A stretch of DNA of 64,000 nt from Raillietiella orientalis (taxonomy: Eukaryota): positions 2,852,001-2,916,000 of the forward strand of contig JAYWIR010000025.1 of NCBI GenBank assembly GCA_036172245.1, written 5' to 3'. A model generated the notes under the pieces. The model did not search any database. It worked only from the letters and a program-made list of their open reading frames with translations, and was not told the origin of the DNA. The translations under genes and the position numbers were made by a program. This document shows, one piece after another, positions 13,870-60,420 of this stretch (position 1 is its first letter; each line of letters opens with the position of its first letter).

Positions 13870-15200
13870 TGTGACGCCAGGAGCTCAACGCGCACGCACC
13901 AAGCCAAATGAGCTTGGAGCGCGCTTCGAAAGGAGCCCTCTACAGCAAAACGAGCCCATAAAAATCCGGGGAGCTCCACACTGTTGACTGCAGCCTTTAA
14001 GGACTTGGTCAAAAAGGAGAAGGGACGAATGGCCATACGCCGCTCACAGAGGCTACTCGTTGCTAAACTCGAGAGGCCTGATGACTGCGCTGCTAGGTCG
14101 AGCAGGAGAATGGTTATCAATCGACTGACCTGGAAAAGGAAAGAGGCACTGATGCGAAATCACCAAATCAAGATCGTGCCTAAAAGTAAGGAACTCTGGA
14201 AGGAGTATTCCATCCTGGGGATCCCATGGCAGCTCCCAGCCCCAAGCGACACGAGGAGTTGGATCTACCAGCGGCCCAGAGTTACCTGCAGAAGAACCGA
14301 AAGCTGGAAACAGGGAGGATGCCAACATATCCCTTGAATCCTGAAATACATTGAGATGGTATCAGGAAGACTCACCCACCGGACCCACGAAATGTGGAAA
14401 AACCACAACTACGCATGGTCCAGGATGAGCAAGAAGAACCCACACCGTCTACTACCCGAAGCCGACAGAGACACCTATGCCCTTGAAGAAGCTGCCAATC
14501 GCTACGAGAGTGCCAGGGTCAACCTGTGAGCGATTGGAACGACGCTCTTGAGGTGTGATTTACCGCCAGACTCACAGGATAACCTCATGTTTTACCACGG
14601 AGGAATCCTGAGCGGGTCGAGGATGAAACACTCCACGGGGAAAGGAGAGGATGAGGACTGCAGAGCATGTGGAGACGTGGACACAAGAATTTATGTCCTG
14701 ACCTGTCCCACGATGCACCAAGATTGGCAAACCCTGAAAATGGCAAATCCATAGGGCTGCCCAACTTCTCATTGATGGGAATCTTAGTAGGGTTCCAAGG
14801 AAACGGCAACGTTCCCTGCTATAATCCTATGGTTAGGATTACCATCGCCCTCTTCATCCCCACCATCCTCATACGGTGGTGGAAGATGAAGATCGCCAGA
14901 ATAGCCGTATCTCCCATGGAAATCCTGAAAGGGATTATCCAAAAGGAGATCGGCGTAAGAAACTGTGGAAGAGTGCCGGCCTGGACGTACCGACACATCC
15001 TGGAGGGGATTAAGGACACCACCCAGGCACACTCACCACCCAGTTCCCCCTAATTGCAGAACCCCATTGATACGACCCCAAAGAAGCAGACTTTAAAGTG
15101 CTGTCAGTGGTGTGTATGATAAACTCGAATGAATGAGATTGTAGTATGAATGATAAGAAAAAGATAAATTTACCCCACTCCCTGTGGGATTGGGGAAAGT
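13870..15200 (+). mobile_element. 3' fragment of another decayed non-LTR retrotransposon (zf-RVT-like)
   Basis: LMFYHGGILSGSRMKH..DCRACGDVDTRIYVLTCPTMHQDW is a C-x2-C..C..W zinc-finger remnant. The fragment ends in a hairpin, ccccactccc-tgt-gggattgggg (~15173-15195). Confidence 0.55.
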
Positions 15201-18200
15201 CAAAAAGGAGAAGGAAAGCAAGACGTTCTCAGGGGCAGTAGGTCCAGAAGGATCCCCTGACGCTGCATATGTCGCTCGAAAAGTGCCTCAGGAGGAGATT
15301 GGATGAGATCTGTGTTCGCAGCGTTCCTGCTTCTTCGTTTCCGTCCTCTTACCTTGGAACTGCCCACTTCTTCGTCTTAGTTGACGATTTTCAGATGGGA
15401 AACAGAAGCTCCTCCAAACGCAGTTAACTTCCGGACATCCGGTTTCACGGACTCCGTGATTCTTATCGAAGCACAGAGTGCAGATGGTTGCGGCAGAAAT
15501 GCAGGAAGCCAGGAACCAGCTGAAACAAGGAAGGGACTCGAATGCAAACAAGAAGAGCCACAGGGCGGCATCCTTCGACGACGGCAGCAAATGCCCTTGA
15601 AGATTTACTGCTCTTTTTGGGAAAGCGAGCAGCAACAGCAACGGAGACTGCAACCGTTAGAGAGGCAGACTTTGCCAGTCAGCCTCTCTAGAATCGCACG
15701 CTTCGTCCCGGGGACTAGCCAGGAAAGCGCAATTGGATCCGTGGCGCATCCCCACAGCAGCAGTCAACCGGATTGCCAACTTAGCAGAGGGAGTACTCAG
15801 CAACGGGGCGATCCTGGCGGTGTTCACCAGAAAGAGCTCCGCGCCTGACTTGCTGCTTGAATCCCCGGACTTTGCTTCCTCCCTCGCAGGGTCCTTGCGA
15901 AACGACATGCAAGTTCGCCGCGGATCAAAGAAGGAAAAGAACTGAAATAGGCCGACGTCGCGAGCGACCTTGGATTCGCGAAGGCGGACGCGTATCCTCG
16001 GTCCCCACCACGAACACCTCGACCCGCAGGAACCCTTCGACCATGCTGCCACGCACACCCCATGCAAACGAGGTGGCCTTCAGAAGCCGTCGCGAACCGA
16101 TCGCGAAGAGAAGGACGGAAGACTGTCGCTTCCTCAAGCCGAAAAAAGAAAGATCCTTAGCCAAGCGAAGGCACTTTCCGGAGGTCCTTTCGGATGGTCT
16201 TCTCGAGTTCCATTTTTTATGAGGAGGAACTTGGACCTTGCATCTCCCGGTGCCGTTGGGATCCACCGGCAAGTTTCATTTTGCTACGGGCCTTATTTCT
16301 TCCAGCAGAGTGTATCAGGGAACAGAATGCCGCTGGCGCTTCGGTCGACACTCCGTATTATCCGAAATCAGCTGGCTCCGCCCATACCGCGAGGCACCGG
16401 GAAGCCTGGGAGAGACGGCGAAGAAACCTTGGAAACTTAGCTTCTACGTGGTCTACTCCCCTGAGGGAGTAGTCCTGGGTCGATATCGCCTCCGACCCCC
16501 TTGCTCACGCCCATGTTCGAGGGCCACCTTAGGCACGGATCCTCGGGCGGAAGTCGCCCTCCTTCCGACCGCCCAGCCATCTGCTGGTTTTCAGGCAGGA
16601 ACTTTGCCCGAGGTAGCTGCAGCTCTGGATGCGAGCGGAGGCGCACAAGCAGGATGCCCGGTGGGGGTTCCGGAAACATAGAAGACCTCGATGAGCGCGG
16701 CTCTCGGCTAACACCACAGACCTTGTGGCGCTATTCCCGCTACGACGACGAAGGATCCAGCCGCAAGGAAGGGGGAGGGGCGGAACTTAGCGCACCTCGC
16801 TCGGGTAGGGGGAGCCGTGCAACTAGGGCGAGCTGTCACTCGCGAGGCGCGAGAATTTTGGGTCTGCTTCTCTCCAGGTCCGAAATTATCCAGAGTGTCC
16901 GCTGGCTTCCGTAGCACCCATGCAGTCAGAAAAATACTGACAACCTCTGCGCCGCTGCGGTTGATCTCCGGCCTCATCCGCATCCTGACGTGCATCCGGC
17001 AACGCTTATCCTCCGAGAAGAACAAAGGAGACCACTGCTCTTCCCTTTCGAGACGTTCGTCAGGCTTGGTTCCTCCTTTGGGTGCTCCCTCCGGCATCTG
17101 GAGGGAATGCTCCTCTAGAAGTTCTCACGACCTATCTTCCTCCACGGCTGCATTTTCCAGCTGACTGTCGTCGTCTGTACTGGTCCTCCCTGCCGCCTGC
17201 TGCCCCTAGCATCGCTGCGTTCGAAGGCCCTGCCCGGGACTTGTTGTACCGAGGAATAGGGATGGTCTGACCTTTGGATGCAGATGGACGTGCAAAGGGA
17301 TCCGAAGAGATCCGTCAGAACGGACGTGACCAGGAGAACGGAGGGGACGTTTGTGTAATCTTCCGTTGATTATGGCCCCGATGAAAATAAGATTCCCAGT
17401 CCCCCTCAAAAAGTTCCCACCCACTCCCTTCCCCCTCTTTTGGCAACACGAAAACCATCCTACACTCTACAGAAAATCACAGGATGCATTTCGAGGTCGC
17501 TGATGTCAGTGCCCATAGTGCAACGTGCACGCGGATACCCCCACTGGACACAGTACGGGAGCACTGCGGCGATAAATTGACCGGCACCCTTGCGCAGACT
17601 AAGGGAAGGGGGAGAAGATCCCTTTGCCAGAGGTTCTCCTCCGTGGAGAACGCTGGAGTTGTTCGCAGTCTCTAATCGTGGGTTGCGAGATGGAACAGAA
17701 CCCCCGCCGTGTCTGACGCGACCTTCATGCGAAGTGCATCTCAAAGGCGCACCTCATGCTCTCCGAAGATCTTCCACTTAGAAGGTCATCGCTGCAGGCG
17801 CTCTTCGGGGTCGAAGTCGCCCCTCCGGAGCACACCTGCCACGAGAGACTAGGAAAGTACGGATTGCTGCGCCCAGTGGGGTCTTCCGTTGCGGCCTCAA
17901 GACGCCCACAAGACGGAACCAGAAGACAGCAACACAAAAGAGTTCTTCTAGCAGCTTCCTTTGCTTGACGCGCGGCAGACCGCAGGAAAAGCGTTGGTTC
18001 CCTGAAATCCAAGAAGGAAAAGACGTGTGATTCACTGGACCCCCTTGACCCTCACCTACGAGTGCTTTCCTTTTAAGGTAACTGCCTAAGACCATTACGC
18101 GAACTTCGACACCTGACCACATCCGCCCCAGCGACTCTGCGTGACCGCTGGACTGTGGTGAGTTGACTTTATTAGTTCATCTTGGATCCAGCAAGACACC

Positions 18201-53168: not shown

Positions 53169-55199
53169 AATCTAAAGCATGCCTCCAGTCATCAACAGAA
53201 TCACGGAATTTTCAGAGTTGACACGAAGCCGTGGATGCTGCTGGGCTGGAAGGGGTAGCAGTTGTGGATTATTTGAGGACACGTTTCGTGTACGGTTTGC
53301 AGAAAAAGACTTCCATAATGGTAGTTCGATAAACTGCGATTCATCAAAGGTTTCCGTTTGGAAACTGAAGCAAGACCCACTTGAGCATTTCTCCTTTTCT
53401 GCCTTCGTTCTTAATGATATGTTAGTTAAATTTCGTTGATCATTGCTTTTCTCACCTATATAAAACCAAATGTCTAAAGCGAGTTTAAGAAAATGTCTTA
53501 AACTCTTCTTGTCCCTCCTTTTTCTTCATTATATCAACACATTCAATCTCACATACAGTAAAACTTCCAAATTTTCCAGATGTAAGAGAAAGGAAGGACT
53601 CTTTATGTTTTTTCTATTTTTCTTCTTAAATATGAAATTATTAGGATAGGAAAGCTATGTCACAGGAAGGTAAAAGCCCACGATGTGAACTAACAGGCGT
53701 TAAGAGAGTATACTATCACATCTCTCAGCATGTAATCTTGTTGTTCAGTTACGAATGGTTATTCATGTTCAACACGTGATTTTTAAACAAGATAATGGAG
53801 CTTTTGAACAACTTCCTTGCACTGTTGCTTTGGATTCAAAGCTGCTCAGTTGAGAATGCTCCAGCTATCATTCTTTCTTCCTCTTGACTGCTGTTTGAAA
53901 ATTCAGTGCTTTGAAAAGATCTTAGTTGTTTAATTTTGCTTCTGCTGCCCACGTCGTTATTCGAAGCAGTTTGTTCTGACGACTTGAAACAGAACTGGAA
54001 GAACTCACAATGCATTAAAAAACGCAAATGATGACTCGTGTGTTTCAGGGTTCTTTAATGCACACGAATTAGAAATGGAAGACAGAAGAATCACCTTTCG
54101 GACTCTCCGTGTTATCCCTTTTGCTTTTGTTTTTTTCATGCAAAGCATGCAGCTACTTTGGAACAAAAACATCTGTTTCTTTGAATTCGACCCTTGAAAA
54201 TTTTTACATAATTACTAATTCAATTTTCTTTTGTAATCAAAATTAAATACTAGGCATCTTACTTTTGAAATTCATATAAACCTCATTGTTTTAACCAATA
54301 TTAAATCACATGCAAAAATGCTTACTAACAGTTTCAAGCATAATTAAATCCTAAATCTAATACATATCTTTCTGTCATATTAGTTTTCAATTTAAACAAG
54401 AAATTTTTCCTTTTTGGTGTAAACAAACTATTCTATTAAACTACTCCCTGCCTTTTTAAAACAATTAAATTTAAAATTTATTTAGTACTATGAATATTTA
54501 TCCCCCCCCCCCCCATCCCCGATCATTGTGTTCAGAATCTCAGAAACAGAATGAAAGACATCAGTGGCAAAAAACGCAGCTTCCTGAAAGTCCACTCTTG
54601 AAGTAAGAATGTGATCTTTCGGATACATCTCGTTGTAGCAGTTTTATATTTTACTACAGGAATATGTTGTGCTTGCGCACTTGTTTTACAACACAATTTG
54701 AGGCAGGAATGATCCGATGGATTTTTCGCTTTTGTCTCTGCCATTTCGGATGACCCCCAAAATGCTTCAACATGCAAATGACTTTTTTCCGAATGGAGGC
54801 ATATCAAGGAAATGGAGAGGTAGACGAAGGCACGTCTTCCGAAGCTTCGAGCTTCGTGTGGGCGGATGAAGTCCCACAGAGCTTTTCCGCGGCAAACAAG
54901 TGCAAACCGGAAGTCGACACACGAGCCGGGGAGAAGCGATGCAGAGACACAATGTGGCTGAAGCGAGAAACCTCAATTTCGAAACCTGGGTATCCAATAG
55001 GGGACATTATGCATTAACTCATCCTCTCATCTGCAGATCAGATGATCGCGTTCCCACGTTGCTGAGGAAATGCCCAGATAGAAATCCAGATTCCGGTACC
55101 AGAAAAGGATCAGCCCAAACCCTACTGGATGCAGTAAACCGTTCAAATGAAAATCGATCAAGTCTTATTTTCCGGAAACTGGGATCGGCTGTCAACCTC

Positions 55200-55384
55200 G
55201 CAGGCTAGGGCTTGTGACTTTATTTTTGTTGCCCCCTTGTCCCTCCCCCGTTCCGGACCTCTCCATTTCCCGGCCTGCGTGCCGGTGGACCCTCCTCCCC
55301 TTTATTTCTTGTGCTCGTCGGCTGGGAACCTTCGTTCCCAAATGCTTTATTTCGACAAACTCCCCGGCGTGACCGGGTGGTAAA
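55200..55384 (+). mobile_element. LINE 3' UTR stub with terminal hairpin
   Basis: Hairpin tgggaac-cttc-gttccca (55323-55340), then acaaactccccggcgtgaccgggtggtaaa (55355-55384), homologous to the LINE terminal motif at 1759 and 28179. Confidence 0.7.
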
Positions 55385-55450
55385 CTTGCGACTCATCAGC
55401 CCCTTCCGAACAGCTGACCTTTAATTGCAAAACGGCTCAGCAACTGCATC

Positions 55451-56020
55451 ATGCAAGGTGATTTCTCGACGAATTTCCAATCTTTAAGATTCCACTCGCA
55501 TGACTCGCAAAATTTCAAAACTTTTGCAACTCGGAAAGAAAACCACCGAAAGCAGAAAACTGCTTTATTCGGCACATGGAAGGCTTAGAATGTGTGTCCC
55601 TTAGCAATGCCCAAGACGTACGTGACCACGAAGAAGCTGCCGGAAACCGAAGTCACCGAACTGCGAAGGGTCATCGCGAACGTCACTTTACACGGCAACA
55701 AGAGCAGCTTCGGGGATTCAGGTCGGGCAGTCGCCTCTTCATCGTACGCCTCGATGACGCGTGTGTCTTGCAACAGGCTCTTATGATCCACTACTCCAAG
55801 GGGGAATCGATACTTGGATCTCCAAAGCTCGGTATTCACACGATGCCGAAACCGAGCTGGACATTAAGATGGACGCGAGCGATCGTTGTGCGGCCAAACG
55901 GATACGGGCGAATCGCTCCAAGTGAGACTCCCTTTTTCTCTGGTGCACGAGAAATCTCATGTTTACCTAGAAGCCAATCTTCTCATAACATTTTGCAGGG
56001 GCGTCTCTTTGAGGGCATGA
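55451..56020 (+). CDS. Spliced small ORF (~96 aa, unknown function) immediately upstream of and in frame with the sarcoglycan ORF
   Basis: Exons 55451-55457, 55605-55721, 55777-55921 and 55999-56020 are GT-AG and phase-consistent, giving MQAMPKTYVTTKKLPETEVTELRRVIANVTLHGNKSSFGDSGSYDPLLQGGIDTWISKARYSHDAETELDIKMDASDRCAAKRIRANRSKGVSLRA*. One donor (gtcggg) is weak. Confidence 0.5.
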
Positions 56021-56023
56021 CTC

Positions 56024-57234
56024 ATGATGATCCTTCTCTCAATTTGGGGAGGACTTTGGTTCAGGAGCATACTGGCTGATTTCGGTGATACCATGCTGCT
56101 GTTGGAAACAGAATCAGCATTTGTCTATGACTTGCACATGTTAGATCAAAACAACAGCGGTAGGATCAAAATGAATTTTACTTCTCATGAAAATTGTAGA
56201 TTCGCAACGACGCTTCCAGCCTCGGTTGGAACACCTTCCAGGATTACCCAGTTGGTTATCTTACAGTTCCAACGAAGAGAAAAACCTTGCAGTGCTATAT
56301 GGTGCCCCTCTGGAGCCTGGCAAAATCAAGGTAATGCATGATAGCACGCAAAAATGTAACACAAAAGTGCTGCAGATAGACGTAACCATTACTGATTTGG
56401 GTACTTTCACTTTCACAACCAAACGATTGATCCTTGAATGCATCCAGTCACCAAGTATGTTACTTTGAATTTGAATTTAGATTGATTTGGATTTAGGGAA
56501 GCCACTTAGACAAGTAGAGTTGATGTTGCTAAACTGGGATCTTAAAGATGTATTGCTCCAACAGAACATAGCTACCTTGCTGAATGTGTTCACATCCAAG
56601 TTGTGGCCTGAAAGTCAGAAAGATATTACCTTGACAGGAATCCAACTTCCAGCATTCAGAAATGATAAACAATTTATTGAGACTGGAAAAGACGGGTATG
56701 CTGGAATAGATCTGACTAATCAAATATAAGTATAATAATATTAGGATAGTGGTCAGAGTAGGTAGTGAAGCGCCTTTCTCAAGGCAGCTGCAATGGTTTC
56801 ACCAGGAAGCAATTCCTAAACAGTTGTGTATTCCACGCTATCAGAAAACCTCTGCAGAACGTTATTTTCGAGAAAGAGGACTTGCTCCTGAATGGTGCTC
56901 CCTCAAACTGATAGAATTAGCCCAACCAAAGTTATCCTCCCCAACAGCTTCTCTTTTTTCTTTTCCTTCACGAAAAGAGAAACCTCAACACACAATCTTC
57001 CACAATCTCGCCACAATACTGGTGCTACCCTGCGTTTTACTAATTATTTTCACATGTGGAGGGCTTATTGTGGTGTTGAAGGGGACCAAGCCAATAGCTC
57101 CTCCCCCTGTCGGTACTTGCGAATTCGCTTCCACTCGCCAGTATTATAATTCATCTGGAAGTGGGTCTCAACTACCACTGCTGCCAAGGTGCCATCGGGC
57201 TGCACCATTGCTTCTGGACACTCCCCCAACTTAA
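56024..57234 (+). CDS. SGCE: Alpha/epsilon-sarcoglycan family type I membrane protein, 344 aa, 5 exons
   Basis: Exons 56024-56159, 56200-56330, 56376-56454, 56497-56695 and 56745-57234 (introns 40, 45, 42, 49 nt). Signal peptide; PGLPSWLSY..VLYGAP; LLNVFTSKLWPES; GIVVRVGSEAPFS..L; C..YQKTSAERYFRERGLAPEWCSLKL; and TM segment LATILVLPCVLLIIFTCGGLIVVL. Invertebrates have a single alpha/epsilon ortholog. Confidence 0.85.
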
Positions 57235-59565
57235 TAGTTACAATGTTCCCCAAGTGTGGGCATGGATTTTTCCGAGAACCTGCCATGAAGCCCAAAATTA
57301 AGGCTTTTTCTGGCCGTGTCACCTTATTAGAGTTTCGGAACATTTCCTGGGCTTCTGCCATTTGCTCTTTCTGAATTACAAGAGAAAATAAAAAATACAG
57401 CCTCTGGTAACCTCTAACTTTCTCACCGTCAGTTGTAGGGAACGCTTTGTTACTGGGGGATCTTCCACAGTTTGTGAAATTGGTTTAGGTGCAGGAGAAG
57501 GTGGCGAATTCTCCCTATTGGTGGGCCTCATTAGTTCTGAACTAGCCACCTGAACAACTGAAGACTGGGAAAAAGTATCACGTGCTGCTGGCATTGGTGA
57601 TGGAGGCATTAATGGGGTGAGAGTAGCATATGTAGGAAGGGGAGTAGATGGAGTAGGTGGAGGAAGATAACATGGAGTAGCAGGTGCTGAGATACCAGGG
57701 CTGGAAAGTGGCAAACCAGCAGCATACTCTGGAGTAGCAGTATTGGTTTCTGATGCTTTCAGTGGATTCTCTCCCTCTGGCAATAGAAAATGGCAAGTGA
57801 ATATGCAACAATAGTGGTCTGAATTCTACCTGGTGCACGTTTCCTCTTTTTTGCTTGATTCCCTATGGGCTGCTCATTAATATCCAAAAGTTTAATGCCT
57901 CCTTCTTTATGCCCTGACAGAGATCGCAGCATGGAACGGGGCAATGTTTGTCCAGAACCACTCCGTGTCAACAAGCCACTCAATTTGCTTGGAATACCCT
58001 TTAGAGGAGCTAATAACTATTGTGAAGACCCTGCCAAGCAATTTAATCCTTACTGGTATCATTCATTTTACGAGGTAATCCCCTGGTACGCAAAGGTACA
58101 GCAGTAATCACATTTTTTTTCAAATGATTGGCTGCTTCTGCTGATTTACTGAGTAACTCAGCACGCAAAGCAGCAGCTTTAGGCTTGCGTTTCAGCTGAA
58201 AGTGTTTACAGGATTGATTGGCTGTTCCAGATATGTCAGACAAGATGTTCTTATTCAGAAAAGAACATTCCAGCGGAAGCAGGCCGGCAACTTCTCCGTG
58301 TCTCTTCACTAATCTTTCCAATGAGTCAGTATGCACAATGCCAGCTCAACACTCACAAACTTTCTTGATATCACTAAGGAGGTCCTGAAAAATCTTCCGG
58401 TTCTCTTCTGGTTCCTTAATCTCCAAATTTAACATGCCAGTGGATGGATAAGGCTTGAGAATTTCTGATAACATGGCAACCCATGACTCAGTATCTGCAG
58501 TGCCCACTTCAAGAATTTCCTCTAACTCGGATCGCCACTAATATCAAAATTAATAAGATCAACATTATGGATATACTATTCCAAAAAAAGAAAAAAATTC
58601 GCTTGAATTTGGGCAAAACTTATCAATTACAGATTTTGTAAGAAATAAGTTCATATTTAAAAAACACAGTTTAAAAAAAATCTGGCCAAAAAACATTTGC
58701 ATCAAATGAAAAAAATTAAATTTAAAACACACAGAAGAGTTTTTCATTTTTAAAAATCCAGTTAGGTGTTAACAAAGTCTTCTCCAGATATAAACGAATG
58801 AAGTTCGCCATTTATTTCTCCTTTTTATTTTTATAAAAAGAGGAATACTTGAATTCCACACACAGATTACAACCATCTTGGTGCATGCATTATCCTCGGC
58901 ACAAATATCCTGCAAAATGTGGTCCTTGCTTGAACGTTCATTGTACACTTATCATTAATACAGTTACAAATGAACTAAATAATTTTCCTTCGGCCACTTT
59001 CATTCAAATTTGAAAAACACAATACCTTTAGCGGCAAAACTTCGAAAGAACAGACTCAGGCTGCATTTTCACTTTAAGAGTCAAGGGCCAATAAAAAGAC
59101 AAAGGAGAAGAAGAAAAGGAAAAATGGCAATCCGATGGAAGATGAAATTTTGATTATTCCAAACGTCGCAGGGCAAATCTGTCCAGAGTAAAACACACAC
59201 ACACACACCCACACACATCGATGAAATGAACGAAACGCACATTTTATTCCTAAGCAACTGTGATGTTCTGCTCATGGCTGTCCACGAGAACTTTGCACTT
59301 ACACACAAACACTTGATTAAAAAATTCAGGAGATACTATACGAAGAATTTCTTACTTCTTCCAAACTGCGTTTCGGAATATGGAAAAAGGAAAGCAATAA
59401 TTTGAGCTTCACTTGGACTTGCAGCTCAATGAAACAGTCTCTAATGTTCCTCAACACATCAGATTTCAGCTGGGAACAGATGGATCCTCCAACCCAGGAA
59501 TCGTTTGAAGTCCCCAACTTGTTGTGCAGCCAAAGAGATGTATCACTATCCCTCACATTTGCCAT
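57065..59565 (-). CDS. NELFA: Negative elongation factor A, 493 aa, 6 exons
   Basis: Exons 59565-59356, 58537-58357, 58308-58054, 58009-57830, 57776-57427 and 57370-57065 (introns 818, 48, 44, 53, 56 nt). Hallmark motifs: MANVRDSDTSLWLHNKLG, VKLKLLLSFFHIP, LPLECSFLNK, KHFQLKRKPKAAALRAELL, GIKLLDINEQP and AQEMFRNSNKVTRPEKALILGFMAGSRKNPCP..FQMNYNTGEWKR. Confidence 0.97.
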
Positions 59566-60420
59566 ACTGACGATCCTTCATTCGGCCATACTAAAATCAA
59601 CGAGAAGTGGTCGCAGTGTTCCTACGCGTGGAGAGCGCTTTCGGGACTACCTTTTCTCCCGCATCTGTCCCGGCGAGCGGGGGCTTCCCGGGACGGGGAG
59701 AGACGTGGAGACGCCGTGGACGTTGTGATGGATGGCCTGTGAAGGAAGGTTCCTTTCGTACCGTTGCAGTGGTCCACTCGCAAGAAAAACTGCCTTTGAA
59801 TGCACGTCTTAAAAAAAGGGGGGGAGCGGAGGGGGGGGGGGAACACCTCCCGAATGGAAGAGAATACTTTGGAAGATAAATTCGCAATTCTTTTTAAAGA
59901 GGATGCGTGAAGACCGTCTTATTATTATTTTTTTTAGATGGCTTTTCGTACGCATGCCACGAATATAGACTTCGGTTCGATTCCACGCTGAATAAGGCCA
60001 GCTTGAAAGCACAATTGGAATTTCGGACGTAGTAATTAACCAGTGCTGTCTCAGTACTTGCGATGCTGCGTAGGAAGTGATGTGTTCCGTAGTACACCAG
60101 AACTGGTTTGCTGACTACTGATGAGCCTCCGGAATGATACATGAGGCAGTACTTAGGAGGCCTCCGTAAAGTGTGCCACATGCGACGCTCTTTTATGAAA
60201 CTTTTATGAAGCTTCCTTCGAATTTTAGCATTTTTGCAAAACGCGACAGACCACCGCTGATGACGATCCGACCGTTGCACTCCCACCGTTGAATCAGAGA
60301 GCACTGACGAAACCTCGCTTCGAATCCCATTTTCCAAGGACATTCCAAAGGACTGAAACTATTAAAGCCATTGTTCACCATGGCCGTCCTGTTCCTGAAG
60401 ACGATCCTCCCCACATCATC

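Follow-up and report, generated by a model that had tools for sequence, protein, structure and literature searches.

A short open reading frame (ORF) ends 3 nt ahead of the start codon of a sarcoglycan gene in Raillietiella orientalis, on the same strand and in the same frame. Is it a gene and, if so, how would the sarcoglycan behind it be produced? The stretch of DNA analysed, referred to here as the window, comprises 64,000 nucleotides of contig JAYWIR010000025.1 (positions 2,852,001 to 2,916,000 of the forward strand) in a genome of 210 Mb and 491 contigs; positions are those of the window. The original prediction held that a single mRNA, spliced three times, encodes an unrecognised small protein together with sarcoglycan, the latter made by reinitiation or leaky scanning, or as a readthrough fusion. 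Our analysis suggests that the upstream ORF is probably a real small protein-coding gene and that it likely shares a transcription unit with sarcoglycan; it points, more tentatively, to a separate message for sarcoglycan itself.

Anatomy of the locus

The structural part of the original prediction proved exact. Removal of three GT..AG introns (55458–55604, 55722–55776 and 55922–55998) would give an upstream ORF of 96 codons from ATG 55451, or 93 codons from ATG 55607, and the acceptor at 55998 opens an exon that carries both the end of this ORF and the sarcoglycan ATG. Within that exon, TGA 56018–56020, CTC and ATG 56024 lie in one frame. The splice junctions of the upstream ORF are predicted from sequence; site strengths below are ranked against 84 control introns.

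54800..55920, no strand: CpG-rich, GC-richer patch (4–11 CpG per 100 nt) ahead of the CpG-poor sarcoglycan body (0–5 in 56000–57300)
55380..55381, + strand: further candidate donor upstream of ATG 55451, 6.1 bits; splicing from here to 55998 would leave an ORF of 19 codons that starts at a weak ATG
55451..55457, + strand: coding end of proposed exon 1, an ATG with A at −3 followed by the strongest donor of the region
55458..55604, + strand: predicted intron 1, 147 nt; donor 8.3 bits (70th percentile), acceptor 3.1 bits (14th percentile)
55605..55721, + strand: main coding-like exon of the upstream ORF, with the second ATG at 55607 (G at −3); GC3 0.79
55722..55776, + strand: predicted intron 2, 55 nt, 60% GC; weak sites, the donor at the 6th and the acceptor at the 10th percentile
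55777..55921, + strand: third exon of the upstream ORF; codon signal within chance; predicted helical
55922..55998, + strand: predicted intron 3, 77 nt; donor 6.0 bits (40th percentile), acceptor 7.1 bits (73rd percentile)
56017..56029, + strand: junction, with an out-of-frame ATG at 56017 overlapping TGA 56018–56020, then CTC, ATG 56024 (C at −3) and ATG 56027 (A at −3)
57387..57392, + strand: first AATAAA of this strand past 55300, a candidate common 3′ end signal

The splice models were built from 84 hand-picked introns whose junctions leave the family sequence intact by eye, wrong or uncheckable predictions being excluded; the training gene models cover 86 loci of the Ras, proteasome and E2 families. 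Introns in this sample are short: 63 of the 84 are under 55 nt, 3 are at least as long as intron 1 and none exceeds 500 nt. The training introns are AT-rich and those of GC-rich genes look different, which bears on the low percentiles of intron 2. Retention of intron 2 would stop the upstream ORF at 55784–55786 after 59 codons, and retention of intron 3 would stop it at 55923–55925, a stop codon that the third donor overlaps.

Coding potential of the upstream ORF

That the three introns splice in consistent phase into a 96-aa ORF is correct as anatomy, but phase and length are within chance expectation. By hand count, ATG 55607 opens 89 other GT-AG paths that reach a length of 70 codons. Of the 423 control acceptors in a 264-kb stretch, 400 GC-matched ones were scored with the same site thresholds, and 49 of these end a spliced ORF of at least 93 codons. 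The case for a gene is made by composition. Codon use in this genome is bimodal, with GC3 near 0.3 in housekeeping genes and 0.7–0.9 in others, and our three-periodic coding model was trained on 1933 codons of GC-rich genes. The codon-frame score of the whole ORF was reached by 5 of the 400 control acceptors, and its codon and amino-acid composition scores together by 1 of the 423, a conservative figure since the control set holds real genes; an alcohol dehydrogenase among them (named by eye) scores below the upstream ORF. On the amino-acid score, the ORF ranks at the 23rd percentile among 98 real pieces and exceeds the 95th percentile among 103 null ORFs.

The coding signal comes mainly from one exon. 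The frame score of 55607–55720 was matched by 8 of 2500 GC-like stop-free stretches and beats 71% of 42 true exon pieces; its value of 1.15 was not reached in any of the 30 upstream regions used as controls, where scorable windows occurred in 11 and the best scored 0.74. The score of 55779–55919 was matched by 862 of 2500 null stretches and beats 3% of 32 true GC-rich exon pieces. The originally proposed parse ranks first of 150 on our own sum of coding and splice scores, and both of its ATGs (55451 and 55607) have a purine at −3, as do 28 of 30 control starts. Taken as a whole, the evidence makes the upstream ORF a probable small protein-coding gene.

Two observations were made on the control material. 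The sole control to match the upstream ORF on both measures, at about 14770–15230 of the window (+ strand; 94 codons, three predicted introns), may be an unannotated gene or a piece of a repeat. The 264-kb stretch also contains two identical alcohol-dehydrogenase-like segments (named by eye), inverted and about 7.5 kb apart, at offsets ~187967 (− strand) and ~195493 (+ strand).

The sarcoglycan gene and its neighbour

56024..57234, + strand: alpha/epsilon-sarcoglycan, 344 aa, five exons (from Pfam, gene model and hydropathy)
56024–56159, 56200–56330, 56376–56454, 56497–56695 and 56745–57234, + strand: sarcoglycan exons
57065..59563 (upstream coordinate approximate), − strand: NELF-A, the convergent neighbour (from Pfam PF23553 and reading of frames)

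The downstream gene is a genuine alpha/epsilon-sarcoglycan, as had been supposed: both of its Pfam families exceed their cut-offs (PF05510, 27 bits against 24; PF20989, 27.8 bits against 24.1), and of five sarcoglycan matches in the genome the one at this locus alone does so. Its four introns measure 40, 45, 42 and 49 nt. The moderately hydrophobic N-terminus, with hydropathy up to 2.0, is signal-like and may be read as a signal peptide, and a second hydrophobic run was noted by eye near residues 270–295. The base at −3 of 30 control starts is A in 21 genes, G in 7, T in 2 and C in none; ATG 56027, with A at this position, is therefore the probable main start of sarcoglycan, whereas ATG 56024 has C.

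The last coding exons of sarcoglycan and of NELF-A, on opposite strands, overlap by 170 nt (57065–57234). At 80 animal NELF-A loci, kept from 109, neither sarcoglycan nor the upstream ORF was found beside NELF-A. By their family patterns, NELF-A and the histone genes look like those of an arthropod. At the 5′ end of NELF-A itself (59560–59650, − strand), about 25 nt separate an acceptor from the ATG; an in-frame upstream ORF (uORF) of 3 codons follows that acceptor, and a possible donor lies 60 nt further up.

A probable shared transcription unit

The plus strand contains no AATAAA or ATTAAA between 55300 and 57386, and no poly(A)-like hexamer lies within intron 3; in 16 of 23 control genes one of the two hexamers occurs within 250 nt of the stop codon. 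The lack of such a hexamer between the ORFs makes it likely that they belong to one transcription unit. The overlap of the third donor with a stop codon raises the question of whether the donor at 55922 is a mere by-product of that stop. As many as 58 of the 84 introns begin with G followed by a stop triplet, and none of 23 control stops forms a donor of at least 6 bits, so the donor is likelier to be real. If the small gene is real, an RNA carrying both ORFs probably exists. Thus, the shared transcript and the unrecognised small protein of the original prediction remain plausible, but translation of sarcoglycan from that same RNA is less likely.

The reading that we prefer, at what we judge to be somewhat under an even chance, places the small gene and sarcoglycan in one unit and derives sarcoglycan from a separate message that uses acceptor 55998. 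Such a unit would start in the CpG-rich patch above 55451, which likely holds the promoter and the 5′ end, and would end past sarcoglycan; no TATA, Inr or DRE motif was found in 54600–55460. It would hold a lineage-restricted small gene (87–96 codons, basic, helical and belonging to no known family) together with sarcoglycan. The RNA from which all three introns are removed would be the message of the small protein, on which the sarcoglycan ORF rides as a passenger, and a second message, entered at acceptor 55998 and lacking the exons of the small gene, would be the main source of sarcoglycan. The anatomy, the site scores, the coding statistics and the missing hexamer are direct observations, whereas the position of the promoter, each of the splicing events, translation of the small ORF and the route to sarcoglycan are inferred.

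Possible routes to sarcoglycan

The list of routes in the original prediction overlooked simpler, sarcoglycan-only messages that use acceptor 55998. Of two such routes we favour cis skip-splicing from donor 55458 to acceptor 55998, itself a tentative proposal and in its exact form rather unlikely. These are the best sites in 54700–56030 (8.3 and 7.1 bits), and the acceptors between them are weak. The product would retain a uORF of only 6 codons, which ends 14 nt ahead of the sarcoglycan start and is so short that ribosomes could resume scanning after it. The intron removed, of 541 nt, would be longer than all 84 sampled, but introns of NELF-A (about 0.8 kb) and of the EB1/MAPRE gene (about 1.3 kb) are longer still.

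Leader trans-splicing at acceptor 55998 is a close alternative, which we regard as doubtful. The acceptor lies 25 nt before the sarcoglycan ATG and 73 nt after the unspliced stop, a spacer of less than 100 nt as in an operon resolved by a spliced leader (SL). An acceptor that serves a leader is expected to stand without an upstream donor, but here a 6.0-bit donor lies 77 nt upstream. Such a donor is nevertheless no absolute bar, since excerpts of a study of Schistosoma describe cis- and trans-splicing competing at one acceptor (PMC5832876). Acceptors show only a mild enrichment ahead of start codons (11 of 30, compared with 30 of 146; Fisher p 0.09). The surroundings of 8 of 43 5S matches, which were examined in part, revealed no leader RNA gene, and the amphipod leader motif has one lone match in the genome.

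Some features of other loci touch on the same subject. EB1/MAPRE is followed on its strand, after about 150 nt, by proteasome beta-4 (G000:C50, ~1073400), and the beta-4 frame opens at its second codon right after an acceptor. The spacer offers no ATG that is followed by a donor, so the beta-4 start codon must come from a distant exon, from a few extra codons or from a leader. The 5S genes on contigs C24, C40 and C109 are inverted pairs and degenerate copies inside shared repeats, one of them near a U4-like copy.

Identity of the small peptide

The predicted small peptide is basic (pI 9.4) and hydrophilic, and its third exon (55777–55921) is predicted, with no alignment as input, as a single helix (pLDDT 79). 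A homology search of either exon found no homologue among 5.8 billion clustered proteins, 1.84 billion representatives, the PDB, metagenomes and the genome itself, the queries being one exon or frame each, in pieces of 38–65 residues. The clustered proteins gave two candidates, neither of them a homologue. The one match among the 1.84 billion representatives was rejected as a 1437-residue tandem repeat that sums weak pieces; one search returned designed repeat proteins only, likewise set aside; and of 593 metagenome pattern matches none was confirmed. The upstream region has no Pfam family in 22 frames (4 + 18), and the ORF has no second copy in the genome. As to a repeat origin, only short, weak DNA matches were found within about 0.66 Mb of the genome's own sequence. 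This blank is weak evidence, because only short pieces were searched and because the last exon of the genuine sarcoglycan (162 residues) is likewise unmatched among 628 candidates.

Two candidate identities were rejected. A relation to MIF/tautomerase gave z 1.6 against the genome's own MIF, while PF01187 matches only contig C2 and the intron positions differ. A TIR domain was suggested by an Atlas score of 0.88, with 109 of 256 features shared, which is below the Atlas threshold and so a lead only; there is no Pfam TIR match.

By eye, the peptide resembles a small histone-fold protein such as CENP-W. It shares with CENP-W, the small histone-fold partner of CENP-T, a length of about 90 residues, a basic and helical character and a faint likeness of motif, also judged by eye, but it has no Pfam match and its motif spacing is two to three residues off the CENP-W pattern. 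In a test with a six-sequence histone-fold profile, 389 of 1000 shuffles scored as high as the peptide; this profile finds 5 of 6 left-out members but also misses the CENP-T-like protein of the genome (203 of 1000). We therefore treat CENP-W as a lead that no profile supports and as an improbable identity. According to excerpts of PMC12678787, CENP-W is present in shrimp, horseshoe crab and millipede and was not found in insects or ticks. No bicistronic CENP-W appeared among the literature matches listed.

The genome has a CENP-T-like gene at two places (26.3 bits, under the cut-off of 28.1). It has a 460-codon open frame (G000:C24:3124259 and C30:21688) with a long N-terminal part rich in Ser and basic residues, a histone fold and two further helices. 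Both copies share the same protein stretch and lie near contig ends, and may represent a duplication or an assembly artefact. A Foldseek search with its model (pLDDT 59.5) gave nothing at E 0.001; MHF chains, which have the histone fold, ranked 10 and 12, with E near 3. At G000:C23:387928 lies a probable CENP-A, a divergent variant of histone H3 whose gene contains introns and whose tail is rich in Arg. Near-identical copies of several housekeeping genes are also seen: TAF9, a Rab-like gene and a UBE2O-like gene each occur in two or three copies on one contig.

If this lead is combined with leader trans-splicing, the small gene would come first in an arthropod operon whose second member is sarcoglycan, and would encode a real orphan protein, perhaps a CENP-W that has diverged strongly. 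Cis-splicing and leader trans-splicing would compete for acceptor 55998, the former producing the RNA with both ORFs and the latter the sarcoglycan mRNA, and the choice would set the ratio of two unrelated proteins. We consider this combination improbable.

Alternative explanations

The upstream ORF may have arisen by chance, in which case the CpG-rich patch would be the promoter and 5′ untranslated region (UTR) of sarcoglycan, intron 3 and perhaps intron 1 would be UTR introns, and the TGA would be an ordinary stop triplet that happens to lie in frame within a UTR. This is unlikely on balance, yet carries appreciable weight. ORFs as long at 49 of the 400 control acceptors, the 89 alternative paths, a third exon within chance and the want of homologues are all as it would predict, and the NELF-A UTR described above, with its acceptor, possible donor and short in-frame uORF, is built in a similar manner. 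It fits less well with the exon at 55607–55720, which scores like a true exon against both the null stretches and the control upstream regions, or with the single control among 423 that equals the ORF on both measures; moreover, the homology blank is low in power. If the ORF is instead a real gene, both proteins might be translated from one dicistronic mRNA, with sarcoglycan reached by reinitiation after the TGA or by leaky scanning, as originally proposed. The top-ranking parse does end in the sarcoglycan start exon, intron 3 is probably real, no poly(A) signal intervenes and excerpts of PMC4528330 provide a precedent in 159 dicistronic pairs of flies. The three-intron RNA, however, presents six AUGs ahead of the sarcoglycan start, five of them with a purine at −3 and one, out of frame at 56017, overlapping the stop. 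The weak first start and scarcity of AUGs associated with leaky scanning are thus not seen, and ATG 56024 has a C at −3, as in none of the 30 control starts. Reinitiation is poor after long ORFs, and UGGGA, the motif of viral reinitiation signals, is not present. We consider translation of sarcoglycan in this manner unlikely.

Readthrough of the stop codon, functional or by way of selenocysteine, would fuse the small protein to sarcoglycan. UGA followed by C is the leakiest stop context. Here TGA-C, found at 1 of 23 control stops, is followed in frame by the second ORF, but a position in frame has one chance in three of occurring by accident. Stop leakage depends on the stop codon and its 3′ base, according to excerpts of PMC5100048. 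A stimulatory 3′ structure, which is present in a minority of known readthrough cases, was not found: the sequence 3′ of the stop gives z −0.10, and 88 of 200 shuffles fold as well. The fusion would bury the moderately hydrophobic signal-like segment behind 98 residues of hydrophilic, basic peptide. The stop lies in the 5′ UTR of a gene with a Met-Met start of its own, a single codon further on, a layout that the excerpts of PMC5100048 class as dicistronic when the stretch from stop to ATG is devoid of coding signal. The selenocysteine version was dropped, since sarcoglycans are not known to be selenoproteins. The fusion put forward in the original prediction is, on this evidence, very improbable. 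We return, then, to a small gene and a sarcoglycan gene in one unit with separate messages as the preferred, if tentative, reading.

Significance and comparison with known systems

If real, the upstream ORF encodes a small, unannotated protein, which gene-finding programs would overlook or merge with sarcoglycan, and the locus is a compact system in which to test how an arthropod genome with closely packed genes expresses two unrelated proteins from one unit. The finding would carry greater weight if the acceptor were trans-spliced, because the excerpts of the crustacean leader papers do not describe operons (PMC4664967, PMC5111886), or if the peptide were the missing CENP-W partner of the CENP-T-like gene. 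A fusion by readthrough in front of a signal peptide would come as a surprise, and nothing here supports it.

The present sarcoglycan resembles known alpha/epsilon-sarcoglycans in its two Pfam domains, N-terminal hydrophobic segment and one putative transmembrane segment; unlike them, it is very divergent and has a short cytoplasmic tail encoded antisense to NELF-A. Full-text searches of the literature found no report of a bicistronic sarcoglycan. With the readthrough genes of Drosophila and Anopheles, as excerpted from PMC5100048 and PMC4528330, the locus shares a TGA-C context and a second ORF in frame. Those known cases are nearly all C-terminal extensions, whereas a complete membrane protein with its own start follows here, with no predicted 3′ structure. 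The bicistrons of green algae, translated by leaky scanning, likewise have a short first ORF with a second close behind. Their first starts are weak and upstream AUGs few (excerpts of PMC11892635), in contrast to the A or G at −3 of the first start and the six AUGs ahead of the second ORF found here.

Spliced-leader operons are known from Ciona intestinalis (excerpts of PMC2760879). As in these, the genes are head-to-tail and less than 100 nt apart, in keeping with the Ciona spacing rule, a strong acceptor stands 25 nt before the downstream ATG and no poly(A) hexamer lies between. The locus differs from SL operons in the fair donor 77 nt before its acceptor and in that no leader RNA gene was found. 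Spliced leaders have been described nearer at hand, in calanoid copepods (PMC4664967) and the amphipod Parhyale (PMC5111886), in papers whose excerpts do not mention operons.

In Drosophila melanogaster, excerpts of PMC4528330 report 159 dicistronic pairs with an excess of small ORFs, the stop and the next start being −34 to 319 nt apart in the obligate cases; genes with a promoter and 5′ exons in common are frequent in flies as well, with 130 genes involved. The present pair is unlike these in being predicted from the genome sequence, in the lack of a known family for its peptide and in its absence from 80 other animal NELF-A loci. In common with them, it places a small ORF immediately ahead of a larger gene to which it is unrelated, on one strand and at a distance within the reported range, and may yield a monocistronic isoform by alternative splicing. 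By this comparison, the locus would work most like those fly loci in which a small and a larger gene share a promoter, exons or a dicistronic RNA.
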